This document shows positions 1,665 through 13,925 of a stretch of DNA of 14,326 bases, piece by piece. Below the pieces are notes generated by a model. It made no database searches, was not told the DNA's origin, and saw only the letters and a list, made by a program, of their open reading frames with translations. The position numbers were made by a program, and so were the translations under genes. The stretch is from Gemmatimonadota bacterium (GTDB lineage Bacteria; Gemmatimonadota; Gemmatimonadetes; Palauibacterales; KS3-K002): contig JBDHJS010000067.1 of NCBI GenBank assembly GCA_039586795.1, positions 1 to 14,326 on the forward strand, read 5' to 3'. The first letter of the stretch is position 1; each line of letters begins with the position of its first letter.

Positions 1665-2918
1665 ATGGCCGTAAGAAAGATTTGTATTCTGGTCGCGCTG
1701 CTCCTGCTGTGGTATTCGCCGGGGCGAGCGCAGACGAGCGATACGCTCCGGCTGGTCGACGCCATCGCGTTCGCCCGGCAGGCGAGTCCGAGATTGCAGA
1801 CGGCGCGTCTCGAAGCCGAGGCCGCATACGCGCGCGTACCAGGAGTGGGCGCGCTGCCCGACCTGCAGGTCGGACTCGGATTGATGAATCGGCAGGTCTC
1901 CGATTTCGGAAGTACATCGAACCCGATGATGATGAACACGGTCCAGCTGGCTCAGCGATTCCCGTGGCCGGGGAAGCTGGGCTTCAGCCAGGACCGGGCG
2001 GCGCTGTTGGCCGTGGCCGAGAAGCTCGACGCCGAAGAGGTGGAGCGACAGCTCATCGCCCGGGTGAAGTCGGTCTATTTCCAGATCGCCTACCTGGACC
2101 GGGCACTCATCGTGATGCAGGAGACGCGTTGGCTGCTCCGCGACTTCCTCGATGTCGCGTCGGCCATGTACGGCGTCGGCGACGCGCTGCAGCAGGATGT
2201 TCTGCAGGCGCAGGTGTCGGTGGCGCAGATGACAGAGGACATCACGGTGGTGGAGCAGAACCGACTGGCGATGGGGGCGCGCCTCAACGCGCTGCTCGGC
2301 CGGCCGGCTACATCGCCGGTGGCCGCGCTCGAGCTCCCGGAACCGGGCGGCGACCTTGCTTCCGTGGACAGCTTGATGGCACTCGCCGCTCAGAGCCGCC
2401 CAGCGTTGAGAGCGGCGCGTCAACGAGTCAGCGCGGCGGAAGCGGGCTACCGGGCGGGCCGTCGCATGTCCTACCCGGACTTCACGCTCATGGTGCAGTA
2501 CGGGCAGCGGCCCGACTTCCCCGACCTCGCCACCTTCATGGTCGGTGTCAGCATTCCCGTCTGGGCGGGAAGCAGCCCACGTGACGAGGCGCAGGCGGTG
2601 CATGTGATGGAGCGATCGAAAGAGCTCGAGCTCTACAACGAGACCTACGCGCGGATCGCCGAGCTGCGTGCCGAAGCGGAGCGCGCCCGCAGGCTCGCCG
2701 ATCTCTACTCCACTTCGATTCTGCCGCAGGCGCGCGCCGCGGTGGAGTCCGCCGTTTCAGCCTATCGGGTGGGCCGCGTCGACTACATGACGCTCCTGGC
2801 CAACGAGATGACCGTGAACCGTTATCGGATCGAGAGCGTGCGCCTCACCGCGGAGTATCACAGCGCGGTGGCGCAAGCGGAAGCCATAGTAGGAGCAGGA
2901 TTGGAAGGTACACGATGA
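1665..2918 (+). CDS. cusC: TolC/CusC-family outer membrane efflux protein
   Basis: Signal peptide from the ATG at 1665 (MAVRKICILVALLLLWYSPGRAQ). OEP-type motifs LPDLQVGLG, QRFPWPGKL, QQDVLQAQV, YPDFTL, GVSIPVW and ILPQARAAVESAVSAYRVG. Its stop overlaps the adaptor start (ATGA). Confidence 0.88.
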   Translation: MAVRKICILVALLLLWYSPGRAQTSDTLRLVDAIAFARQASPRLQTARLEAEAAYARVPGVGALPDLQVGLGLMNRQVSDFGSTSNPMMMNTVQLAQRFPWPGKLGFSQDRAALLAVAEKLDAEEVERQLIARVKSVYFQIAYLDRALIVMQETRWLLRDFLDVASAMYGVGDALQQDVLQAQVSVAQMTEDITVVEQNRLAMGARLNALLGRPATSPVAALELPEPGGDLASVDSLMALAAQSRPALRAARQRVSAAEAGYRAGRRMSYPDFTLMVQYGQRPDFPDLATFMVGVSIPVWAGSSPRDEAQAVHVMERSKELELYNETYARIAELRAEAERARRLADLYSTSILPQARAAVESAVSAYRVGRVDYMTLLANEMTVNRYRIESVRLTAEYHSAVAQAEAIVGAGLEGTR

Positions 2919-4204
2919 GAATGGACAGACTGAGCGTTGTCGTTGCCGCGGTCATGGTTTTGGCGTGCGGCGGTTCGGAAGAAGAGTCGCCGATGCCGGG
3001 GATGACGGCGGAAGAGCACGCCATGCATCAGGGCGGGAATACGGGCGTCACCGACAGCACGGGGCAGGCCGTTCGTCAGGCCGTGCATCTGACAGCCGAA
3101 CAAGAACGCGCCCTCGGCGTGGTTTACACGACCGTGGCTCGCGATCGCCTGGTACGGACGATACGAACGGTGGGGCTGATCGAGGCGGCAGAATCGAGCA
3201 TCGCGGATGTGACGCTGAAGATCGAGGGCTTCGTCGAGAGGCTGCACGTCAACACGACCGGCGAGTCGGTGCGTCGTGGTCAGCCGCTGTTGACGCTGTA
3301 CAGCCCGATGCTCGTCGCGGCTCAAGAAGAACTGTTGATGGCAAAGCGCCTGGCGGCGCAGGTCGATTCCAGCGCCAGCGAAGCGTGGAGTAACGCACAG
3401 CGGATGTTAGAGGCAGCCCGCCGTCGACTGGCCTATTGGGACATAACTCCTGAACAGATCGAGCGGGTCGAACGTACCGGCGAAGTTACCAAAACTCTCA
3501 CGTTCGTGGCGCCAGTTAGCGGGATCGTGCTCGAGAAGGATGTCTTCGAGGGCCAGAGGGTCATGCCTGGCCAACGGCTCTATCGCATCGCCGACCTGTC
3601 GACGGTGTGGGTCGAGGGCGAGCTGTTCGAGCAGGATCTCCAATTCGTCCACGCGGGTTCGCAGGCGCATATCGAGGTGGCGGCGTACCCCGGCGTCCAT
3701 CTGATGGGCCACGTGAGCTTCGTCTATCCGACCGTTGACGAGCGCAGCCGCACGAACCGGATGCGACTCACCGTGGCCAACCCCGAGCTCCGACTCAAGC
3801 CCGGAATGTATGTGACGGTCTACTTCGATGCCGAGATCGGAAACGACGTCATTTCCGTCCCCATCGATGCGGTCGTCGCCACGGGCGAGCGGAACCTGGT
3901 CTTTCATCGCCATGAGGATGGCTCTCTTCATCCACATGAGGTCGTGCTTGGCGCCCGCGCCGGCGGCCGGGTGCTGGTCCTGGCGGGGCTCGAGGAGGGG
4001 GTAGAGATCGTGGCATCCGCCAACTTCCTCGTCGATGCCGAGTCGCGACTCGGCGCCACGGGTGGCTCGATGCCGGGGATGCAGCACGCCGGTCATGGCT
4101 CAGCCGTTGAACCGGGGCAAGAGCACACCCAACACATCGAACAGCCGATGGATACATCGGGCGAGCACGAAGGTCACGAAGGCGGAGGGCATCAGCATGA
4201 TTAG
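2915..4204 (+). CDS. cusB: RND periplasmic adaptor (CusB-like membrane fusion protein), probable lipoprotein
   Basis: Lipobox VLAC. MFP motifs GFVERLHVNTTGESVRRGQPLLTLYSPMLVAAQEE, APVSGIV, IADLSTVWVEG, VYPTVDERSRT, LKPGMY and ANFLVDAESRL. Both termini are Met/His-rich. Confidence 0.92.
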   Translation: MRMDRLSVVVAAVMVLACGGSEEESPMPGMTAEEHAMHQGGNTGVTDSTGQAVRQAVHLTAEQERALGVVYTTVARDRLVRTIRTVGLIEAAESSIADVTLKIEGFVERLHVNTTGESVRRGQPLLTLYSPMLVAAQEELLMAKRLAAQVDSSASEAWSNAQRMLEAARRRLAYWDITPEQIERVERTGEVTKTLTFVAPVSGIVLEKDVFEGQRVMPGQRLYRIADLSTVWVEGELFEQDLQFVHAGSQAHIEVAAYPGVHLMGHVSFVYPTVDERSRTNRMRLTVANPELRLKPGMYVTVYFDAEIGNDVISVPIDAVVATGERNLVFHRHEDGSLHPHEVVLGARAGGRVLVLAGLEEGVEIVASANFLVDAESRLGATGGSMPGMQHAGHGSAVEPGQEHTQHIEQPMDTSGEHEGHEGGGHQHD

Positions 4205-7200
4205 CAAGGTCATTGCCTGGTCCCTCAATAACCGTTTCCTGGTGTTGCTGGGTAGTGCGGCGATCGTGTTGGCCGGCATCTGGGCCATCGGCTCGACGCC
4301 GCTGGATGCGATTCCCGACCTATCAGACGTTCAGGTCATCATTCAGACGGACTTCCGGGAGCAGGCGCCGCAGATCGTCGAGGACCAGGTTACGTATCCG
4401 ATTACTTCCGAGATGCTCAAAGTGCCGGGCGCCCGGGTCGTGAGAGGCTACTCCTTCTTCGGCCTGAGCCTGGTCTATGTGATCTTCGAGGACGGCACCG
4501 ACATCTACTGGGCCCGTTCACGGGTGCTCGAGTACCTGAACGGCATTCGCGGGCAACTCCCCGCTGGCGTCGAGCCAACTCTCGGGCCCGATGCCACGGG
4601 TGTCGGCTGGGTGTTCGAGTACACCCTCGAGTCGGACAGCCTCGATCTCGCCGAGCTTCGGACGCTTCAGGACTGGTACCTTCGTTACCAGTTGACGGCG
4701 GTGCCCGGCGTGTCAGAGGTGGCCAGCGTCGGCGGCTTCGTGAAGCAGTACCAGGTCGAAGTGAATCCCGAACGACTTCGAGCGTTCAACATCCCTGTCA
4801 CAAGAGTCGCTCAGGCCATCGGATCTCACAACATAGATATCGGCGCCCGCGTGCTGGAGATGGGCGGCCGGGAGTACATGATCCGCGGACTCGGCTACCT
4901 GCAGGGCGTAGAGGATATCGAGAACGTTGCCGTCGGCGCGACGCCCAACGGCACGCCGATCCGCGTGGCGGACGTGGCGACTGTGCAGTTAGGTCCGGCG
5001 CCACGGCGCGGCGCTACCGACCTCGATGGCAAGGGAGAGGTAGTGGCGGGGATCGTCGTCTTGCGATTCGGCGCCGACGCCCTCGGGACGATCGAGGCGG
5101 TGAAGGAGCGACTGCGTGAGATAGAGCAGGGATTGCCCGCCGGCGTACGCTTACGCACGGCCTACGATCGCAGCGACCTCATCCACCGGGCGATCCACAC
5201 ATTGCGCGAGAAGCTCGTAGAGGAATCTCTGATCGTCGCCCTCGTCGCGCTGGTCTTTCTGCTGCACGCGCGATCGGCCCTCGTCGCCATTGTCACTCTG
5301 CCTCTCGGGATCCTGATCTCGTTCATCGTCATGCGGCTCATCGGCGTGAACGCGAACATCATGAGTCTGGGCGGCATCGCCATCGCCATCGGCGCCATGG
5401 TCGATGCGGCTATCGTGATGATCGAGAACATGCACAAGCACATCGAGCGCGATGACGGGAGCAGGTCACGCTGGGACATCGTTCAGGAAAGTGCCAACCA
5501 GGTGGGACCGCCGCTCTTCTTCTCACTGCTCATCATCACGTTCAGCTTCCTGCCGGTCTTCGCGCTGGAGCAGCAGGAGGGTCGGCTGTTCAAGCCGCTG
5601 GCGTTCACCAAGACCTTCGCCATGGCCGGTGCGGCGTTGCTGTCGATCACCTTGGTACCGGTGCTGATGGGCTACCTGATCAGGGGGAAGATTCGGCCCG
5701 AGTCCCGAAACCCGGTGAATCGGGGGCTCATGTGGGCCTACCGGCCGATCATCGATTTTGCGGTGCGGCGGCCATTGCTCGTCATCGTGGGCGCGGTGGT
5801 CGTACTGGCGGTAACGGTCCTTCCGTGGCGGCGGCTCGGCAGCGAGTTCATGCCACCCCTCCAGGAAGGCTCAATCCTCTTCATGCCAACGACGGTGCCC
5901 GGCGTATCCATCGCTCAGGCCCGCAAGATCATGACGTACCAGGACAGCGTGCTCGCGTCGTTCCCCGAGGTCGATGTCGTGCTGGGTAAGGTGGGGCGCG
6001 CCGAGACCGCTACCGATCCCGCACCCCTCGACATGTGGGAGACCACAGTCACTCTGAAGCCGAAGAGCGAGTGGCGTGATGCGATGACGTACGAACGCCT
6101 CGTCGCGGAGATGGATCGCGCGGTGAGCCTTCCGGGCGTGACTAACGCCTGGACGATGCCCATCAAGGGTCGCATCGACATGCTTGCTACTGGGATCCGT
6201 ACTGCGGTCGGCATCAAGATCTTCGGCCCCGACCTCGAGGCGCTGCAAACCCTGGGCGAGCAGGTCGAGCGGATCATCCAGGAGGTTCCCGGTACTCGGA
6301 GCGCCTTCGCCGAACGTGGCGTTTCAGGCTACTACGTCGACATCGAGATCGACCGCGCCGAGGCGGCCCGCTATGGCTTGAACGTCGGCGACGTTCACGG
6401 CGCCATCATGGCGACCGTGGGGGGTATGACGGCGGCCGTAACCGTGGAAGGTCGCGAGCGCTATGCGGTGAACGTTCGTTACCCGAGAGAGCTGCGCGAC
6501 GATGTGCAGAAGCTGCGAGAGGTCTTGATTCCGGCGATTGGCGACGCGCAGATCCCGCTTGGCCAGGTAGCGAGCGTGGAAGTGCGGCAGGGCGCCATGG
6601 CCGTAAAGACTGAGAACGCGTTTCCGATGACGACGATTTACGTCGATATCGGCGAACGCGATGTCGGGAGTTACGTGCGTGAGGCACAGCAGGCTGTGAA
6701 CTCACAGCTAGCTTTGCCGCCCGGATACTCGTTGGTATGGAGCGGCCAGTACGAGTTCATGCAGCGCGTCATCCAGAAGTTGAGGGTAGTCGTACCGGTA
6801 ACGCTGGCGATCATCTTCATGCTGCTCTACTTCAGCTTCGGCGGCGTCGCCGAATCGCTGATCGTCATGCTCGCCTTGCCCTTCTCGTTGGTCGGCGGTG
6901 TTTGGTTCCTCTGGCTTCTCGACTACAACACGAGCGTTGCTGTCTGGGTGGGCTTCATTGCACTTGCCGGTGTGGCGGCGGAAACCGGCGTGGTGATGCT
7001 CATCTACCTGGACGAAGCCTACTACGCCCGCCTGAAAAAGGGTCTCATGCGCACGAGGTCCGATGTCGCGGCGGCCGTCCGCGAAGGCGCGTTGGAGAGG
7101 CTGCGGCCAAAGATCATGACCGTAACAGCGATCATGGCAGGTCTCGCGCCGATCCTTTGGAGTCGCGGCACGGGCGCCGATGTGATGAAGCGCATCGCCG

Positions 7201-7358
7201 CTCCTATGGTGGGTGGGATGGTGAGCGCGACGGTTCTTACGCTGGTCGTCATCCCCGCGATCTACCTGGTTTGGCGAAGTTGGCTGGTTCGTCGCGAGGC
7301 TCACGCATCGGACGCAGAAGAAACTTTGCAGGAGACGGTAACGGCGTCCATTGTTTGA
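4197..7358 (+). CDS. cusA: CusA/CzcA-family heavy-metal RND permease, Cu(I)/Ag(I) type
   Basis: The likely start is the ATG at 4197 (MISKVIAWSLNNRFLV), overlapping cusB. Motifs DAIPDLSDVQVII, GPDATGVGWV and GAMVDAAIVMIEN. Met-triad equivalents FMPTT, PLDMWET and RIDMLATG. Also AGVAAETG and RLRPKIMT. Confidence 0.96.
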   Translation: MISKVIAWSLNNRFLVLLGSAAIVLAGIWAIGSTPLDAIPDLSDVQVIIQTDFREQAPQIVEDQVTYPITSEMLKVPGARVVRGYSFFGLSLVYVIFEDGTDIYWARSRVLEYLNGIRGQLPAGVEPTLGPDATGVGWVFEYTLESDSLDLAELRTLQDWYLRYQLTAVPGVSEVASVGGFVKQYQVEVNPERLRAFNIPVTRVAQAIGSHNIDIGARVLEMGGREYMIRGLGYLQGVEDIENVAVGATPNGTPIRVADVATVQLGPAPRRGATDLDGKGEVVAGIVVLRFGADALGTIEAVKERLREIEQGLPAGVRLRTAYDRSDLIHRAIHTLREKLVEESLIVALVALVFLLHARSALVAIVTLPLGILISFIVMRLIGVNANIMSLGGIAIAIGAMVDAAIVMIENMHKHIERDDGSRSRWDIVQESANQVGPPLFFSLLIITFSFLPVFALEQQEGRLFKPLAFTKTFAMAGAALLSITLVPVLMGYLIRGKIRPESRNPVNRGLMWAYRPIIDFAVRRPLLVIVGAVVVLAVTVLPWRRLGSEFMPPLQEGSILFMPTTVPGVSIAQARKIMTYQDSVLASFPEVDVVLGKVGRAETATDPAPLDMWETTVTLKPKSEWRDAMTYERLVAEMDRAVSLPGVTNAWTMPIKGRIDMLATGIRTAVGIKIFGPDLEALQTLGEQVERIIQEVPGTRSAFAERGVSGYYVDIEIDRAEAARYGLNVGDVHGAIMATVGGMTAAVTVEGRERYAVNVRYPRELRDDVQKLREVLIPAIGDAQIPLGQVASVEVRQGAMAVKTENAFPMTTIYVDIGERDVGSYVREAQQAVNSQLALPPGYSLVWSGQYEFMQRVIQKLRVVVPVTLAIIFMLLYFSFGGVAESLIVMLALPFSLVGGVWFLWLLDYNTSVAVWVGFIALAGVAAETGVVMLIYLDEAYYARLKKGLMRTRSDVAAAVREGALERLRPKIMTVTAIMAGLAPILWSRGTGADVMKRIAAPMVGGMVSATVLTLVVIPAIYLVWRSWLVRREAHASDAEETLQETVTASIV

Positions 7359-7396: not shown

Positions 7397-8152
7397 ATGA
7401 TGAAGATGTCTGGGATCTTGGCTACCCTAATTGGTTTGAGCTTGGTCGCCTGTAACGATGACCCCACGGACCCGCGGAACGGACAGACACAAACGGTATT
7501 CGATGTACAAGCGGATCGAATAGAGACCTTCGAAGATGTTGACATCCATGTCCGGGTCGACGGTGGCGGCGGTCCGCTGCAGATGGAGCATGGGGAGATG
7601 CACGTCGACGGAGTGGGCGGCTCCGATTGGATGCACGAGATGGAAGCGATGGGGGATGGCTGGGTGGCTCATGCCATGTTCTTCGAGCCCGGCATCCACC
7701 AACTGCACTTCCAGGGTCGCCGCCACGGCGGCGGCGACGAGAACTTCGGCGAACACATGGTCGAGGTTCACCGCCAACATCGGTTGATCGGCGACTATTG
7801 GGCCGAGCTTTCATTCGACCCGGCGCCAATCGTCGCAGGCACGGAGGCGACCGTTACGCTGACCATCTTCGAGATCGACGGTCAGTCGCCCGGGGCGCCG
7901 GCTACCGGTCTGACGCTGGTGGCGCACCTGCACGATCCGAATGATGTCGAATCCCCCGTCTCCTTCGTCGAGGGCACGGCCGGAACCTATGAAGTGACAT
8001 ACACCTTCGACGATGTCGGCCTCTACGAACTGCACGTCACGATCGGCACGGACGAGGGCCTGTTTCATTTCCCGGTATTCGCGTCTCTCGATGACATCGG
8101 GACGCGTGGCCACGGTCACGGAGGAGGCGGTCACCACGGAATGATGCCGTAG
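7397..8152 (+). CDS. His/Met-rich lipoprotein, probably two YtkA/FixH-like beta-sandwich domains; putative periplasmic metal-binding protein
   Basis: AAGGA RBS and lipobox LVAC. Segments MEHGEMH and WMHEMEAM, a YtkA-like GTYEVTYTFDDVGLYELHVTI, and C-terminal GHGHGGGGHHGMMP. Confidence 0.7.
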   Translation: MMKMSGILATLIGLSLVACNDDPTDPRNGQTQTVFDVQADRIETFEDVDIHVRVDGGGGPLQMEHGEMHVDGVGGSDWMHEMEAMGDGWVAHAMFFEPGIHQLHFQGRRHGGGDENFGEHMVEVHRQHRLIGDYWAELSFDPAPIVAGTEATVTLTIFEIDGQSPGAPATGLTLVAHLHDPNDVESPVSFVEGTAGTYEVTYTFDDVGLYELHVTIGTDEGLFHFPVFASLDDIGTRGHGHGGGGHHGMMP

Positions 8153-8174: not shown

Positions 8175-10181
8175 ATGGATCACGGACATCACCCCGACCA
8201 CGGGACGTCGACCGGAAACGGCGGTGGCCACGGCCATCACGCTCACATGGTGGCCGACTTCCGCCGCCGGTTCTGGATCTCACTGGCGCTCACGATACCC
8301 GTCTTAGCACTTGCGCCGCTCATCCAGAGGTTCCTGGGTATCGAAGGTGCGCTCGACTTCCCCGGCGACTCCCTGGTCCAGGCCCTTTTAGCGACCGTCA
8401 TCTACTTCTATGGCGGTTGGCCTTTCCTGAAGGGCTTTGTGAAGGAGATGGGCGACCGGAGGCCAGGAATGATGACGCTGATCGCCCTGGCAATCACCGT
8501 CGCCTATGCCTACAGCGCGGCCGTTGTCCTGGGCCTGCCCGGCGAAGGCTTCTTCTGGGAACTGGCCACGCTGATCGACATCATGCTCCTGGGCCACTGG
8601 GTCGAGATGCGGTCGGTGATGGGAGCATCCCGGGCGTTGGAGAAACTGGTCGAGCTACTCCCCGCAGAAGCGCATCGCCTTCGTGAGGATGGATCCTCCG
8701 AAGACGTCCCCGTGACCGAGGTCGTCCCGGGCGATCGGGTGCTGGTGAAACCCGGCGAGAAGATCCCCGTGGACGGAGTGGTGGTGGCAGGTCGCACGAC
8801 GGTGAATGAAGCGGCGCTCACGGGTGAGAGCGTGCCCGTAGAGAAGGGCGAAGCGGATAACGTGATCGCGGGCGCCGTTAACGGCGAGTCGGCCATCACG
8901 ATTGATGTCCAGAAGACGGGTGGCGATACCTATCTGTCACAGGTCGTGGAAATGGTGCGCCTGGCCCAGGAGACACGCTCTCGCACTCAGGATCTCGCAA
9001 ACCGGGCAGCGCTCTGGCTAACCGTTACTGCGGTGACCGTCGGTACCGTGACGCTAACGGTCTGGCTGCTCGTCGGCCGCGACTTCAATTTCGCCCTCAG
9101 TCGTATGGTCACTGTCATGGTGATCGCATGTCCGCACGCGTTGGGCCTGGCGATTCCCCTCGTCGTGGCGGTATCCACAGGCTTGTCGGCCAGAATGGGT
9201 CTACTGATTCGCGATCGCACGGCGTTCGAGCGGGCCCGGACTCTCGATGCGATCGTCTTCGACAAGACCGGAACACTCACCCGCGGCGAGTTCGGCGTCA
9301 CGGATGTGGTGGACCTGGTCGGGGGGAGCGAAGAGGAAGTCCTGCGCCTGGCGGCGTCGCTGGAAAGCCAGTCGGAGCACCCTATCGCCGCCGGCGTGGT
9401 GCGGAGCGCCGGGGAACGGCAGGTGAAGTTTGGCGTTCCGAAGAACTTTCGAGCTATACCGGGCAAGGGCGCTGAAGCCGATGTGGACGGACGCAACGTC
9501 AAAGTTGTGAGCCCCGGCTACCTAACTCAAAACGGTCTGTCAGTGGATAGCGATCGGGTAGCCGAGCTGAACAAAGAAGGGAAGACGGTCGTTTATTTGC
9601 TTGTCGATGACCGGGTGCACGGCGCCATTGCCCTCGCCGACATCATCCGCGACGAGTCGCACGAGGCGCTGCGGCGGCTCAAGGCGATGGGCATCCAGGT
9701 GTTGATGCTCACGGGCGACGCGGAAGCCGTGGCGCGCTGGGTCGCCGGCGAGCTGGAGCTGGACGAGTATTTCGCCGAAGTACTGCCGGAACAAAAGGCC
9801 AACAAGATTCGGGAGGTCAAGTCGCGGGGGCTGACCGTGGCGATGACGGGCGACGGTGTGAACGACGCCCCGGCGTTGGTCGAGGCGGATGTCGGCATCG
9901 CGATCGGTGCCGGCACCGACGTGGCCGTGGAGTCGGCGGATATCGTGCTCGTGCGTTCCGATCCGCGCGACGTGACCTCGCTGGTCGAGCTGGCCCGGGC
10001 GACGTACCGGAAGATGGTTCAGAATCTGATGTGGGCGACCGGCTATAACGTCGTGGCGATTCCACTGGCGGCGGGTGTTTTGTACAACGCGGGCATCGTG
10101 CTTTCTCCCGCGGCCGGCGCCGTTCTCATGTCTCTGTCGACTGTGATCGTCGCCGTAAACGCGCGACTCCTGAAATTGTAG
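8175..10181 (+). CDS. copB: Copper-translocating P1B-type ATPase, P1B-3 (CopB-like)
   Basis: His-rich N-terminus (MDHGHHPDHG...GHGHHAHM) with no CxxC domain. Motifs TGES, transmembrane CPH (IACPHALGLAIP), DKTGTLT, SEHP, TGDGVNDAPAL, YN and MSLST. Confidence 0.93.
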   Translation: MDHGHHPDHGTSTGNGGGHGHHAHMVADFRRRFWISLALTIPVLALAPLIQRFLGIEGALDFPGDSLVQALLATVIYFYGGWPFLKGFVKEMGDRRPGMMTLIALAITVAYAYSAAVVLGLPGEGFFWELATLIDIMLLGHWVEMRSVMGASRALEKLVELLPAEAHRLREDGSSEDVPVTEVVPGDRVLVKPGEKIPVDGVVVAGRTTVNEAALTGESVPVEKGEADNVIAGAVNGESAITIDVQKTGGDTYLSQVVEMVRLAQETRSRTQDLANRAALWLTVTAVTVGTVTLTVWLLVGRDFNFALSRMVTVMVIACPHALGLAIPLVVAVSTGLSARMGLLIRDRTAFERARTLDAIVFDKTGTLTRGEFGVTDVVDLVGGSEEEVLRLAASLESQSEHPIAAGVVRSAGERQVKFGVPKNFRAIPGKGAEADVDGRNVKVVSPGYLTQNGLSVDSDRVAELNKEGKTVVYLLVDDRVHGAIALADIIRDESHEALRRLKAMGIQVLMLTGDAEAVARWVAGELELDEYFAEVLPEQKANKIREVKSRGLTVAMTGDGVNDAPALVEADVGIAIGAGTDVAVESADIVLVRSDPRDVTSLVELARATYRKMVQNLMWATGYNVVAIPLAAGVLYNAGIVLSPAAGAVLMSLSTVIVAVNARLLKL

Positions 10182-10202: not shown

Positions 10203-11228
10203 ATGAACTCTCCTGACAGCGGAATGAAGAAGGGGGCGGGCAGGATTGCCGAGCGACTGGCGCTCGACGCCCTGGACTACGCTGTACCGAAGCTCGCGGA
10301 GCGGGCGCCCTACTTTATCGGTGGCCTGACCGCGTCGTTGATCGCCGTATTGATACTTACGGGCCTCTATCTGGCCCAGTTCTACAATCCGAACCCGGCC
10401 GGCGCCCACGACAGCGTGCTCTACATCATCACCCGTGCTCCATTCGGCGATTGGATACGGAGTCTACACTATTGGGCAGCAGGCGGCGTCGTGGTCAGCG
10501 TCACGGCTCACCTGGCTTACGTCTTCTGGCGTCGCTCCTACAAGCGGCCCCGTGAGGTAACGTGGTGGGCGGGCGTCGCCATGGCCGGCCTTCTCTTTCT
10601 GCTGATCGTTACTGGCACCGCGCTCCGCTTCGACCAGGAGGGCTTCGAGGCCCTGGCGCACTTCGTGGCCGGAGGAGAGCTGACAGGTGCGTTGGGTGCG
10701 TTCTTCACCGAGAGCTTCACGCTGAGCACGCCGCTTCTGACCCGGGTGTTCAGCCTGCACACTAGCCTGTTACCTCTGGCGCTTCTGGCGCTGGTCGGTC
10801 TCCACTTCTGGCTCATTCGGCAGCACGGTATTCGCGCCGACAGCTCAGAGACAATCGTCTTTCGCCGGCATCTCAAGCGGCTGTCGGGTGCGGCCCTTAT
10901 CGTCTTTGCAGTGATAGGTGTGCTGGCGGTCGTTTTTCCGGCAGGGCTCGGCTACCCAGCGGTGGCAGGCTACGAAGTGACCAAGCCGTTCTGGCCGGCG
11001 CTCTGGGTGTATGGACTCGAGAACCTGTTGGGCGCCTGGGGCATGGTCGTCGGGCCGGCCGCGCTCTTCGCGTTTTTGATAGCTGTGCCGCTGTTGGACA
11101 GAAGGACGGATGACGGGCCGGGCCGCAACGGTTGGGTCGGCTGGGTCGGGCTGATCTTCGGGGTAACGGTCCTCGCGCTGTGGCTCTACGGCGCCTTCAG
11201 TGCGCCACAGCAGCATATCGGCATGTGA
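10203..11228 (+). CDS. Orphan cytochrome b/b6-like di-heme membrane protein (cyt b6 plus subunit IV-like, about 7 TM)
   Basis: Motifs YFIGG, LILTGLYLAQFYNP, AHDSVLYI, GDWIRSLHYWAA...AHL, SYKRPREVTWWAG and TRVFSLH...GLHF. All four heme-ligand His are present. The PEWY position reads PFWP. Confidence 0.85.
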   Translation: MNSPDSGMKKGAGRIAERLALDALDYAVPKLAERAPYFIGGLTASLIAVLILTGLYLAQFYNPNPAGAHDSVLYIITRAPFGDWIRSLHYWAAGGVVVSVTAHLAYVFWRRSYKRPREVTWWAGVAMAGLLFLLIVTGTALRFDQEGFEALAHFVAGGELTGALGAFFTESFTLSTPLLTRVFSLHTSLLPLALLALVGLHFWLIRQHGIRADSSETIVFRRHLKRLSGAALIVFAVIGVLAVVFPAGLGYPAVAGYEVTKPFWPALWVYGLENLLGAWGMVVGPAALFAFLIAVPLLDRRTDDGPGRNGWVGWVGLIFGVTVLALWLYGAFSAPQQHIGM

Positions 11229-11252: not shown

Positions 11253-11813
11253 ATGCAGGTTGGGAAATCGGTCTTTAAACGTCGCGGATATTGGATCGTG
11301 CTTGCGGCAACATTGATGACTGCGACGTCGGACGCACGGGGGCATGAGGATGCCGTATTGAGGAGTTCCGTTTCGGCCATCGCGGCAGGAGACACGCTGC
11401 CGCTCAGTGGGGCCGACTTCTCATCCGGAACCGCCTACGAACTCCGCCTTCTCGGCGCACTGCGTGAATACGAGTTGCGGAGCATCGACGTGGGTCCCGA
11501 AGGCACGTTCGAGATAGCGTTGCCGATCTCATCGGGAGTCGCCCCGGGCGTCTACAAGCTGGTGGCCGTCGCCCCCGACGGCGATCGCGTTGCCAGCCTC
11601 GACCTGACCGTGCTTGAGCCGAGGTTGGCAGCGACCGATGGGAACGACGATTCGAAGGGCAGTGATGGATCGGGACAATCAGACGCACGCGAGATGGCGC
11701 GGGCCGACGAGATACCGATCGAGCGGTCACGGGGCGGCGCCGAGTGGGGCGTCATCGGACTGGTGGTCGGCTTGGCGGCCGGCCTCGGGATCATGTTGAT
11801 CCGCCGTTCGTGA
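11253..11813 (+). CDS. Secreted, C-terminally membrane-anchored beta-sandwich protein, CopC-like
   Basis: AGGAG at 11239-11243 favours the ATG at 11253 over 11244. The signal peptide ends ...SDARG, so the mature protein would start HEDAVLRSS. It contains GVYKLVAVAPDGD and a C-terminal TM WGVIGLVVGLAAGLGIMLIRRS. Confidence 0.65.
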   Translation: MQVGKSVFKRRGYWIVLAATLMTATSDARGHEDAVLRSSVSAIAAGDTLPLSGADFSSGTAYELRLLGALREYELRSIDVGPEGTFEIALPISSGVAPGVYKLVAVAPDGDRVASLDLTVLEPRLAATDGNDDSKGSDGSGQSDAREMARADEIPIERSRGGAEWGVIGLVVGLAAGLGIMLIRRS

Positions 11814-11856: not shown

Positions 11857-12330
11857 ATGGCCAGAGGTTTCTTTGGGAGGCAAATCGCCGCCGTGGTCTG
11901 TGTTGCCGGGGCGATCGTGCTGTCCGCATCGTCGGCCGTGGCGCAGACGGATGAGCAGGCCATAGCGGCGACGGTCGAGGCCGTCTTCGCGGCCGGCGAG
12001 CGGGCGGACTACGCGGCTCTCGATACGCTCTACGCCGGCGAAGACTTGACGATCATCGAGGGCGCGGGCATAGACCGGGGGTGGACGGAGTATCGAGACC
12101 ACCACCTGAAGCCCGAGCTCGAGGCATTCAAGAGCTTTGTCTATCGGCCCTATGAAATAGAGGTCTACGCCGTCGGCTCATTGGCCTATGCGATCTTCCG
12201 CTACGATCTGAAGATAGAGCTCGAGGACCGTACAGTGGACAACGTGGGGCGAGGGACGGCGATCCTGGAACAGCGCGGCGAGCGCTGGGTCGTGAGGCAC
12301 ATGCAGACGACAAGTCGGCCTCGTCGCTGA
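11857..12330 (+). CDS. Secreted NTF2/SnoaL-like (DUF4440-type) protein
   Basis: GGGGAG RBS and signal peptide ending ASSAVA. NTF2-like pattern DEQAIAATVEAVFAAGERADYAALDTLYA...IIEG...GRGTAILEQRGERWVVRHMQTTS, plus the His pair YRDHHL. Confidence 0.78.
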   Translation: MARGFFGRQIAAVVCVAGAIVLSASSAVAQTDEQAIAATVEAVFAAGERADYAALDTLYAGEDLTIIEGAGIDRGWTEYRDHHLKPELEAFKSFVYRPYEIEVYAVGSLAYAIFRYDLKIELEDRTVDNVGRGTAILEQRGERWVVRHMQTTSRPRR

Positions 12331-12345
12331 CCGACGACGCTACCT

Positions 12346-12573
12346 CTAATCGTCGATCTCGAGTTCGTACTTTTCAATTCGGTAGCGCAGCGTGTCCCGG
12401 GTCAGCGAGAGCAGTTCCGCGGCCCGGGTCTTGTTCCCTTGCGTGCGTTGTAGTGCCTGCCGGATGATCTCTTGCTGTAGCTTCTCCAGGTTCACTCCAC
12501 CGGCCGGCAACTGGAAGCCGGGCTCGAGATCCAGTGGGCTGCCGCCCGGCTTCATCTCGTCGGGCAGGTCTGC
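12346..12573 (-). pseudogene. 3' remnant of a sigma54-dependent (NtrC-family) regulator: Fis-type HTH only
   Basis: The frame reads ADLPDEMKPGG...FQLPAGGVNLEKLQQEIIRQALQRTQGNKTRAAELLSLTRDTLRYRIEKYEL. An in-frame TAA lies immediately upstream (12574-12576). No AAA+ or receiver domain is present. Confidence 0.72.
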
Positions 12574-12704: not shown

Positions 12705-12917
12705 CTACCCGATGAGGGTCGCTTTGTAGCCAGCAGCGGCCACGACGCTGATGATCGCGTCGAGGGTGACGTCGTCCGTCAACTCTATGAGAACGGTCTT
12801 GTCTTCCAGGGAGACTTCCACGTTCCTGATGACGGTCAGACTACTAAGCGCCGACCTAACTTTGTCGGCGCACCCGTCGCAATTCATGTCCGGCACACTA
12901 AGTATGACGTTCTTCAT
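12705..12917 (-). CDS. copZ: Heavy-metal-associated (HMA) domain protein, CopZ-like chaperone
   Basis: 70 aa from the ATG at 12917 (GAAGGGA upstream): MKNVILSVPDMNCDGCADKVRSALSSL...VEVSLEDKTVLI...AAAGY. It has the MxCxxC motif and the terminal GY of the HMA fold. Confidence 0.85.
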   Translation of the reverse strand: MKNVILSVPDMNCDGCADKVRSALSSLTVIRNVEVSLEDKTVLIELTDDVTLDAIISVVAAAGYKATLIG

Positions 12918-12935
12918 CGAGTCCCTTCGTCCCGG

Positions 12936-12975
12936 TCCCCGAATCCCCGAATCTCGTAACCCCCGCATCCCAACG
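12936..12975. repeat. Degenerate octamer tandem repeat in the SHOCT-copZ spacer
   Basis: tccccgaa-tccccgaa-tctcgtaa-cccccgca-tcccaacg, period 8. Confidence 0.5.
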
Positions 12976-13326
12976 CTACTCGATCTTCTCCAGCCGATCA
13001 AGCTCCTTCTCATACTCCTCCATCGAGATCCGCCCCTCGATGAACCGCTGTTGCAGGTCCTCCAACGGCGATGCCGGCTTCGCCCGAACCTGCACCGGCT
13101 CTCTCTTGCTGTCTCGATCGTACGTGGCGTCGACCATCGGCCGTCGGCTCCGGCCCAGGCGGCCTTTCACCCGGGACTCCAGATCCGACAGGCGGCGGTC
13201 GTCCTCGTTCCGCATCTGCTCCACTTCGCCATGCTTCTTCTTGTGGCGACGGCCCCAGCCGCACATGCGGCCACAGCCCCAGAAGATCAGAGCGAACAGC
13301 GCGATGAATCCCCAGCCGAACTCCAT
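12976..13326 (-). CDS. Single-pass membrane protein with C-terminal SHOCT domain
   Basis: GGAGG RBS. N-terminal TM FGWGFIALFALIFWG followed by CGRMC and a basic stretch. The C-terminal SPLEDLQQRFIEGRISMEEYEKELDRL matches the SHOCT pattern. Confidence 0.8.
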   Translation of the reverse strand: MEFGWGFIALFALIFWGCGRMCGWGRRHKKKHGEVEQMRNEDDRRLSDLESRVKGRLGRSRRPMVDATYDRDSKREPVQVRAKPASPLEDLQQRFIEGRISMEEYEKELDRLEKIE

Positions 13327-13343
13327 AAGCCTGCCTCCAGGCG

Positions 13344-13925
13344 CTAGAGGGTATCCCCCGTCGCCGCGCCCGGCTTGATTTCCTCGATCTCACGAGCCGC
13401 CCGCTCCAGGATCTCCTGCACCCGGGCCAGCTCTTCGGGAGTCTCCGACCAGCGGAGGCCCCTCTCAAATGTAACCTGGGCAAGCTTCCTAAACGAGCGC
13501 GTGAGATCGGTCATCTCGGTCCGGAAAAACCTGTCGGTAAAGCTACTGACCCGGTCCAGGATGTCGTCCACCACGTCACCGTTCTCCTTCAAGAACTCCC
13601 GCCCCTCGTCGGTGATGCTATAGACTTTCTTCCCCTCCTTCTCCTCGCAGACCACATACCCCTGGTCCTCGAGCATCTGTAGGGTGGGATAGACGGAGCC
13701 GGGGCTGGCTGAATAGCAGCCGCCCGATTCCTCTTCAAGAGCGCGCATCACCTCGTAGCCGTGCATCGGCTTCTCGGACAACAGGCGCAGAATCACGTAC
13801 TTGAGATCGCCGCGATCGAACATGCGAAAGCGCATGCCCCGAGGCCCCGATCCGAAGCTGAACCCTTTGGGGCCGAAGCAGGCGGCGAACATGTCGAAGC
13901 CTCGGTCCCTGCGTCTTCTACTCAT
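13344..13925 (-). CDS. PadR-family transcriptional regulator (YqjI-like)
   Basis: AGGAG RBS. Winged-HTH motif RGDLKYVILRLLSEKPMHGYEVMRALEEESGGCYSASPGSVYPTLQMLEDQGYV...KKVYSITDEGREFL, and C-terminal ILERAAREI helix. Confidence 0.92.
   Translation of the reverse strand: MSRRRRDRGFDMFAACFGPKGFSFGSGPRGMRFRMFDRGDLKYVILRLLSEKPMHGYEVMRALEEESGGCYSASPGSVYPTLQMLEDQGYVVCEEKEGKKVYSITDEGREFLKENGDVVDDILDRVSSFTDRFFRTEMTDLTRSFRKLAQVTFERGLRWSETPEELARVQEILERAAREIEEIKPGAATGDTL

Follow-up and report, generated by a model that had tools for sequence, protein, structure and literature searches.

What does a cytochrome b do when it is encoded inside a copper-resistance operon, directly behind a copper-exporting ATPase and with no Rieske protein alongside? 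In bc and b6f complexes, cytochrome b is regarded as inseparable from the Rieske protein, the two making up the core. The question is raised by a gene on a 14,326-nt contig of a Gemmatimonadota bacterium (JBDHJS010000067.1 in assembly GCA_039586795.1; contig C25), which was analyzed as a complete contig and is referred to below as the window. The open reading frame (ORF) at 10203..11228, on the forward strand like all features described below from cusC to the SnoaL/NTF2-like gene, encodes a protein of 341 amino acids (aa) and starts 21 nt past the stop codon of the copB gene (10181), the gap that an earlier note on this DNA had reported. We found that this gene and the gene directly downstream of it form a conserved two-gene module, which is new within the cytochrome b/b6 kind. 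With a probability of roughly 45%, the two proteins would carry electrons through the membrane to Cu(II) in the periplasm and act as a membrane-bound Cu(II) reductase.

The protein encoded at 10203..11228 is a cytochrome b in which b6 and subunit IV are fused. Its matches to PF00033 (84 bits) and PF13631 (63 bits) both lie above the curated cut-off (27) and place it in the cytochrome b/b6 family, and its best PDB sequence matches were cytochrome b6 (E 9e-28). Against the named NCBIfam families it scored below every cut-off (score/cut-off: PRK03735 121/325, ExtP NF040969 136/290, QcrB 48/500, SoxC 53/740). An AlphaFold model with a mean predicted local distance difference test score (pLDDT) of 76.5 contains seven helices of membrane length (residues 35-58, 82-110, 118-141, 178-208, 220-244, 279-298, and 310-332) and can be overlaid on helices A-G of cytochrome b from bc1/bcc complexes (Z 24.2, root-mean-square deviation (rmsd) 4.3, 326 residues aligned); a hydropathy scan by itself gave six peaks and missed helix B. 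Positive-inside counts placed the N-terminus inside and the C-terminus outside. The architecture described in the earlier note, with about seven transmembrane helices, two pairs of heme-ligand His with 13 and 14 intervening residues, a periplasmic C-terminal QQHIGM and no Cys for heme ci, was recovered in every part. The model has the seven helices, the ligands of the two predicted b hemes are H89 and H103 on helix B (10467..10511) and H186 and H201 on helix D (10758..10805), the placement of QQHIGM fits the positive-inside count, and YFIGG (10311..10325) aligns with the YCIGG of b6 as a CxGG motif that has lost its Cys. The missing heme-ci Cys and the b6-type spacing are uninformative here because both are common in long cytochromes b (PMC5600118).

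Conservation was examined in a close set, the best 120 of 449 homologues, in which the named members are Gemmatimonadota, and in a broad alignment of 40 sequences with 29% mean identity. The heme ligands H89, H103, H186, and H201 are kept in 120, 119, 120, and 120 of the 120 close homologues, respectively, and all four are kept in the broad alignment; the former heme-ci position is occupied by Met in 105/120. Ten further residues (D144, E146, E149, H153, H223, E258, W264, Y270, E273, and H338) are each present in 120/120 and nearly invariant in the broad alignment. The cd1 motif D-Q-E-G-F-E-A-L-A-H (D144-H153; 10632..10661) holds the predicted metal ligands E146, E149, and H153. The Qi-side segment H223-L227 (10869..10883) ends in position 227, which is hydrophobic here and often Asp or Glu in other cytochromes b. 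The ef region, E258-x-T-K-P-F-W-P...Y270-G-L-E273-N (10974..11024), comprises the former PEWY motif and two new conserved Glu, and the predicted periplasmic QQHIGM (11208..11225) contains H338, another predicted ligand, and M341 (117/120). The earlier note had called the cd1 region divergent; it does differ from the usual segment, but what it contains is a strictly conserved new motif, not mere divergence. Residues W142, V146, and L282 (yeast numbering) presumably face the Rieske-docking site. On an ideal helix E146, E149, and H153 share one face within a 60 degree arc, and the alignment equivalents of E146, E149, A150, and H153 are b6 V143, W146, A147, and I150. The docking position of the Rieske head in bc1 is between cd1 and the ef loop, and a hydrogen bond connects this head to the Tyr that corresponds to Y270 (PMC10404626, PMC7908018).

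To place the protein among other cytochromes b, as the earlier note had proposed, a tree of 137 rows was built. Besides the window protein it contains 25 loci of the family, 26 loci of other cytochromes b, and 85 representatives, kept out of 149 because they cover 285 or more profile positions (64 were dropped). A profile derived from the family served for the alignment, the root was proteobacterial bc1, and the tree was built without cyanobacterial PetB and without true ExtP, no over-cut-off ExtP being present in the 301 genomes sampled from the phylum. The 72 rows with both E149 and H153 fell in a distinct clade of 78 (FastTree support 0.77; 0.96 with P0171 added), which was retained with 79 tips and a support of 0.93 when the cd1, ef, and C-terminal segments were masked. 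Comparison of the 78 clade rows with the 59 other rows gave E at position 149 in 73/78 vs. W in 43/59, H at position 153 in 74/78 vs. V/I in 48/59, E at position 273 in 75/78 vs. L in 32/59, and E at position 258 in 69/78 vs. 13/59. The Glu of PEWY (position 263) is acidic in 1/78 inside and 40/59 outside, and the acidic Qi residue (position 227) is L, I, M, or V in 73/78 inside and D or E in 33/59 outside. H338 is present in 67/78 clade rows and a Cys at the heme-ci position in 1/78 (P0151); P262, W264, Tyr or Phe at 270, K261 and both hemes are retained. As read from the alignments, the signature of the clade is a set of predicted outside-facing polar residues (E146, E149, H153, E258, E273, and H338) at formerly hydrophobic sites within and next to the Qo/Rieske-docking region, and homology suggests that they may form one metal site.

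The earlier note had instead put weight on PFWP (10986-10997) in place of PEWY. The motif is where it was said to be, in register with the PEWY of Aquifex cytochrome b 6kls (P296-E297-W298-Y299; P262-P265 and Y270 align with Aquifex P296-Y299 and Y304), but it failed as the key change and as a family marker. Position 263 is P in 50, L in 9, and F in 9 of the 78 clade rows, most of the clade having PPW, and PPW-type motifs also occur in Rieske-containing complexes, as PPWF in Sulfolobus SoxC/SoxN (PMC4122944) and as PPWY in Acidithiobacillus (supplementary alignment rows of PMC5600118). Membership in subfamily G of PMC5600118 was considered and rejected, its rows from the candidate phyla radiation (CPR), Ktedonobacter and Nitrospina reading WDQLAYW/WDQIAIW; the strings EALAH, EALEH, TKPPW, and TKPFW were found in none of the four supplementary files of the paper.

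A profile search of cluster representatives stretches the clade to about 30% identity. It ranges over Gemmatimonadota, Acidobacteriota, Actinomycetota (on plasmids), and Bacillota, and includes the cultured strains Streptomyces sp. FR1, S. mirabilis P16B-1, Pseudarthrobacter defluvii E5, Tepidibacillus, and Fodinisporobacter. In the ESM Atlas the cytochrome was found among clusters from Actinomycetota, Gemmatimonadota, Myxococcota, Chloroflexota, and Thermodesulfobacteriota, and the protein encoded downstream among unnamed clusters. One sub-branch (P0194, P0197, P0213) has Asp and Arg in place of E149 and H153, has lost H338, and has a different, membrane-anchored C-terminal extension; its function may have changed a second time. 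In three genomes (L062:8019-9097, G277:C1, and G106:C3) the cytochrome b gene is split by an apparent frameshift and the downstream gene is intact.

Neither a Rieske gene nor a CxxCH gene was seen in the window, in line with the earlier note, which had found no adjacent Rieske or cytochrome c gene. The Rieske-free gene context is a property of the family: by motif search, which atypical Rieske proteins can escape, a Rieske motif was found in 1/176 family loci overall. The count was 1/80 for the GTDB loci (L018, on the opposite strand and 2.5 kb off), 0/16 for the loci of the phylum sample (four of which duplicate earlier loci) and 0/80 for metagenome loci, many of them on short contigs. By comparison, 8/8 canonical cytochromes b found by the same profile have a Rieske motif at most 1.5 kb away. 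The limit of the test is seen in four borderline cytochromes b of another group (L097-L100), near which the motif search also found no Rieske; they group with C80:36980 of the source genome, likewise without a standard Rieske neighbour. Diheme cytochrome c genes lie in a few family loci and are not constant neighbours.

An ordinary bc-type cytochrome b could still assemble with a Rieske protein encoded elsewhere. The source genome holds six cytochromes b and seven Rieske-domain genes, three of which are not beside any cytochrome b; Rieske genes are not always adjacent (PMC5600118), PPW motifs are found in working complexes, and Y270 and K261 are retained. We nevertheless regard this explanation as highly improbable. 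The charged residues on the docking face are found in this clade only, the counts of family loci and canonical controls differ as described above, and four of the Rieske genes of the source genome sit with other cytochromes b; a further one, on C17, is a 130-aa frame with no evident anchor. Around the inspected plasmid copies, 12 kb of flanking sequence to each side is free of Rieske genes. What distinguishes this member of the cytochrome b/b6 family from Rieske/cytochrome b complexes is that it has no adjacent Rieske gene, has PFWP in place of P(E/D)W(Y/F), and carries E149, H153, and E273 on the otherwise hydrophobic cd1/ef face. The database name of its homologues, "ubiquinol-cytochrome c reductase cytochrome b subunit," likely leads complex III to be overcalled where members of the clade are present.

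Some cytochromes b outside the clade were also noted. Contigs C29, C53, C55, and C80 of the source genome (G000) hold other cytochromes b, of which four have Rieske genes next to them along with multiheme cytochromes c. G000:C80:36449-38181 (L196) and L097-L100 belong to a Gemmatimonadota cytochrome b group with an STW/TW-type motif replacing PEWY and a Glu at the H153 position; the neighbour of the L196 gene encodes 159 aa with no standard Rieske motif and no PF00355 match and lies beside multiheme cytochromes c. Many Streptomyces plasmids carry a QcrB-like cytochrome b, and the one inspected, L204 (NZ_CP130719.1), falls outside the clade and has no Rieske within 1.5 kb.

If the Rieske protein is absent, what takes its place? 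The gene at 11253..11813 (alternative start 11244), which the earlier note had pointed to for co-folding, is linked to the cytochrome b by adjacency, co-occurrence, and fusion. It lies downstream of the cytochrome b gene in 78/80 GTDB loci, both misses being contig ends, and in 65/67 metagenome loci with at least 400 nt of downstream room. Among the 301 phylum genomes, the same 18 (including the source genome and G156) hold both the cytochrome b (E 1e-52 or better) and the partner (E 1e-34 or better), adjacent to each other; four weaker cytochrome b matches and three weak matches to its immunoglobulin-like (Ig-like) domain are other proteins. Cytochrome b-partner fusions occur in P0129, P0130, P0135 (E 3e-19 to 6e-10), P0205, and L165.

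The partner is predicted to consist of a signal peptide, a mature N-terminal His, an Ig-like beta-sandwich, a linker, and a C-terminal membrane anchor. Its sole invariant polar residue is the His directly behind an AxA-type cleavage site, judged by eye and not by a signal-peptide program, which is present in 79/79 partners and in 70/72 further sequences. In the window this His (11343..11345) follows A-R-G and is a predicted N-terminal Cu(II) ligand. In a model of the partner (pLDDT 84), an Ig-like domain of seven strands is followed by a disordered, flexible linker, rich in His and Met in many homologues, and by a C-terminal helix. Its best fold matches were MG2-type Ig domains of macroglobulins (Z 11.1, rmsd 2.7, 91 residues aligned), the lists being filled by generic Ig domains, and neither CopC nor YcnI was among the top 50. 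The Ig domain has no conserved Trp. Profile alignment with hhalign against 25 CopC domains gave a probability of 68% and a score of 29.3 over 45 columns, compared with 14.2 for the best of 30 column shuffles, which do not control for other Ig domains, and this would indicate a resemblance to CopC, not membership. The aligned segment brings a D-G-D turn (11577..11585) into register with the D-G-H copper-ligand turn of CopC, whose second His position is D in 65/79 partners. The PDB entry for CopC, 6nfs, matched the partner with E 0.63, and no match to PF07987 (YcnI/DUF1775) was listed for 70 partner members.

The fusions keep the AxA-H cleavage-type site behind helix G (AYA-H in P0129, P0130, and L165), except for P0135 (AYA-D), and since they do so, the last helix suggests itself as an internal signal in the fused proteins. 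Partners of other folds are found elsewhere in the clade. Actinobacteria-type loci encode an unrelated helical, anchored partner upstream that likewise starts AxA-H in L102, L169, and L172 but ARA-DEEE in two Streptomyces plasmids, and other members (P0151, P0162, P0192, P0131, P0137) end in His-rich tails or His/Glu helical bundles. In P0131, P0136, P0137, P0143, and P0168, which include Tepidibacillus and Fodinisporobacter, C-terminal helical repeats, in most of them rich in His and Glu, replace the Ig partner. What is constant across the clade is an outside-facing His/Glu unit tied to the cytochrome.

Whether this unit handles copper was approached through the neighbouring genes. Copper markers were a P1B ATPase, a multicopper oxidase, CusA/B, outer-membrane CopB, DUF305, and Csp, with a strict set that drops CusB, DUF305, and Csp. 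They were found in 43/80 GTDB loci (32 strict) vs. 1.2% of 20,000 windows of the same size from the source genome, an indicative ratio, since these loci supplied the marker queries and a single genome the control. Clustering at 80% identity left 30/52 clusters with a marker (24 strict), clustering at 70% left 6/15, and in the phylum sample 11/16 loci had one. Eighteen of 23 P1B motifs are Cu-type (YN and MxxS), four are truncated and one is not Cu-type, which makes 18/19 full-length motifs Cu-type. Four plasmid records carry the clade; the three inspected, all actinobacterial, lie among heavy-metal ATPases, two of them between an ATPase pair, and also hold a metal-sensitive repressor, DUF2933 or DUF302. 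An ATPase is nearby in 16/80 loci and CusA in 6/80; because CusA is this rare, the case for a CusA-specific role is weak. The copper link suggested in the earlier note was upheld as a strong enrichment beside copper genes, but not as a constant, 37/80 loci having no copper marker. The link is strong but not obligatory.

How could such a module work? In the favoured reading, a Cu(II) reductase, signal peptidase would expose His1 of the partner, which would bind Cu(II) via His1 and a carboxylate. Near heme bL, at the position taken by the docked [2Fe-2S] head in a bc complex, the partner would deliver Cu(II) to the E146/E149/H153/E258/E273/H338 site. Electrons from menaquinol, or from a cytoplasmic donor via heme bH, would reach the copper, and the resulting Cu(I) would pass to Cu(I)-specific machinery that exports it, stores it, or loads it into copper enzymes. 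The electron donor is the least certain step of this mechanism, because the Glu of PEWY, the heme-ci Cys, and the acidic Qi residue are all absent. The direction of electron flow is taken from redox potentials: reduction of Cu(II) by low-potential hemes and menaquinol is downhill.

A Q-cycle-type form of this mechanism, in which copper would stand in for the [2Fe-2S] cluster of the Rieske protein and environmental Cu(II) would serve as high-potential acceptor, appears a distant prospect. Quinol would be oxidized at the remnant Qo pocket, one electron passing to Cu(II) and the other to hemes bL and bH. The Cu(II) would be held between the Glu/His site of the cytochrome and the tethered His1 of the partner, which would act as a copper-loaded mobile head. 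P262, W264, Tyr/Phe 270, K261, and both hemes are kept; the acidic Qi residue is not. If true, this would be the first cytochrome b of its family to bifurcate electrons without an iron-sulfur protein.

The opposite direction is also conceivable: the module may be a Cu(I):quinone oxidoreductase that oxidizes toxic periplasmic Cu(I) from the P1B ATPase without O2, electrons passing inward via bL and bH. The position of the gene directly behind a Cu-exporting ATPase and the 16 loci with an ATPase nearby would fit, as would the Glu/His-rich sites, which favour Cu(II), the product. In bc complexes electrons natively run from bL to bH, and anaerobic Cu(I) oxidation has been proposed for CopG (PMC7558416). 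We consider this doubtful on three grounds: electron transfer from Cu(I) to b hemes and menaquinone is uphill on the potentials used above, the acidic Qi residue that helps to bind an accepting quinone is lost in 73/78 clade rows, and the ligand set of the partner resembles that of Cu(II) binders.

The degradation of all three canonical quinone-site features could instead mean that the module is a non-catalytic copper sink, sensor, or handover platform, whose scaffold would bind copper together with the partner and whose hemes would be structural or report redox state. Many members carry long His-rich tails or His/Glu bundles that resemble stores (P0151, P0162, P0192, P0131, P0137). This seems distinctly unlikely, the four heme ligands being kept over 29% mean identity, as in a working electron chain, and a signalling domain or transporter never being a constant neighbour.

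Several observations weigh against the Cu(II) reductase. No quinone-site residue marking a donor site was identified, and the AlphaFold model of the cytochrome has pLDDT below 50 at residues 145-149, 250-261, and 337-341, i.e., in cd1, the ef loop, and the C-terminus. The partner lacks the second His of CopC, no match to PF04234 (CopC) was seen among the families shown for 70 partner members (25/27 families shown), and two Streptomyces plasmid partners begin ARA-DEEE, without His. Proteins with an N-terminal His can prefer nickel, as DUF4198 does (PMC12537917), and DUF4198 relatives occur in eight loci. Multicopper oxidases, which oxidize Cu(I), are as frequent as ATPases (16/80), a poor fit to a reductase unless the reductase serves enzyme loading. 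Besides the 37/80 loci without a marker, long loci (at least 15 kb) have one in 15/39 only, and ten marker-free Longimicrobiales loci lie in a housekeeping context between fumC/trxB and peptidases. Among 133 singleton ORFs from the marker-free loci, the only additional finds were a Csp and a sulfocyanin domain.

A further explanation is that the conduit depends on a metal but does not serve copper: it may, for example, have a non-heme Fe, Ni, or Co site, act as a ferric reductase, or scavenge superoxide or other oxidants as damage control in copper islands. The ExxExxxH and Glu ligands would suit Fe(II/III) as well, several of the ten Longimicrobiales loci contain Fur- and MerC-domain genes, and FtrD-like, PepSY_TM, VKOR, DUF4198, and MtrB neighbours appear sporadically. 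Copper markers dominate, however, the ATPases are Cu-type, and no iron-uptake gene recurs beyond a few loci; we consider such a role unlikely.

Against this background, a Cu(II) reductase of the kind favoured here can be compared with known systems. With cytochrome b6 plus subunit IV (PetB/PetD, Bacillus QcrB/QcrC) and long cytochromes b the protein shares helices A-G, the four heme His with 13/14 spacing, an Arg/Lys at the b6 R207 position, the P-x-W and the ef Tyr. Unlike Rieske/cytochrome b complexes, it lacks a Rieske or exit cytochrome gene nearby, the heme-ci Cys, the Glu of PEWY, and the acidic Qi residue, and it has the new E146/E149/H153/E258/E273/H338 set and a dedicated partner with an N-terminal His. 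The partner resembles CopC in its predicted signal peptide followed by His1, its predicted Ig-like beta-sandwich and a G-x-Y...D-G turn in register, and resembles YcnI in the predicted His1 and C-terminal membrane anchor; YcnI binds Cu(II) with His1 and a Glu and has a C-terminal anchor (PMC8424229). It differs from both in having Asp for the second His of CopC and in being teamed with a cytochrome b, not with a CopD/YcnJ importer. The principle proposed here, membrane hemes feeding electrons to a metal bound outside, is that of the eukaryotic heme-based metal reductases Dcytb, Fre, and Steap (PMC7558416) and of bacterial PepSY_TM proteins such as CrpH (PMC13038864). Those proteins have unrelated folds; the present scaffold is a Q-cycle cytochrome b with no NADPH/FAD domain. 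CcoG and CopG, too, are bacterial enzymes dedicated to copper redox chemistry and linked to Cu ATPases or Cus (PMC7558416), but neither carries b hemes: CcoG uses [4Fe-4S] clusters, and CopG, a soluble protein of thioredoxin fold, contains a Cu cluster.

In the window the module follows cusC-, cusB-, and cusA-like efflux genes of the resistance-nodulation-division type (1620-2918, 2915-4204, and about 4197-7358; OEP, HlyD_D23, and TIGR00914 with 1173 bits), a predicted His/Met-rich lipoprotein with an Ig-like domain (7397..8152; PF00630, 27 bits) that is common to one other locus, and the CopB-type P1B copper ATPase (8175..10181; TIGR01511, 604 bits, above cut-off; motifs CPH, YN, and MSxST). 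An exported SnoaL/NTF2-like protein (11857..12330; PF13474) is a frequent optional third gene, with relatives in 20/81 loci; it has a conserved-looking YRDHH segment, and relatives are also fused to DUF4198. Upstream of cusC, 1179-1574 encodes a small exported Cys-rich protein (CACCGMDDCC) with no Pfam match. A Fis-type helix-turn-helix fragment lies at 12346-12555, and on the reverse strand (12705-13925) genes for a PadR regulator, a SHOCT-like protein, and a CDGC-containing protein with a heavy-metal-associated domain run toward the operon. The operon structure is read from gene spacing, because a promoter and terminator scan gave no support: no sigma-70-like site was found, and the one terminator-like site is intragenic, fewer than in shuffles. 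RNA runs gave shares of 0.06-0.10, and a 339-nt RNA-library contig matches 10132-10470 exactly, spanning the copB-cytochrome b junction; at depth 3 it shows neither transcription nor a single transcript. In other family loci, two exported proteins with no Pfam match (286 and 533 aa; L044:5373-7920 and relatives) recur as a pair beside the module (14 and 16 loci), where BlaI/M56 regulators and DUF305 are often present too, and other unannotated exported proteins (458, 417, and 410 aa) recur in 7, 4, and 5 loci.

Full-text literature searches, whose coverage excludes most subscription papers, returned no description of the clade or the module, and the available parts of two surveys of cytochrome b evolution (PMC4122944 and PMC5600118), whose figures and one PMC4122944 supplement could hold a member, do not mention the clade. 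According to a 2020 review, CcoG is the only specific bacterial cupric reductase (PMC7558416). A widespread and partly plasmid-borne clade without a Rieske gene, in which the docking face is rebuilt with likely metal ligands, indicates that the cytochrome b scaffold has been reused, and the clade has recruited N-terminal-His partners of at least two different folds. The module is a testable two-gene candidate for setting the oxidation state of copper outside the cytoplasmic membrane.

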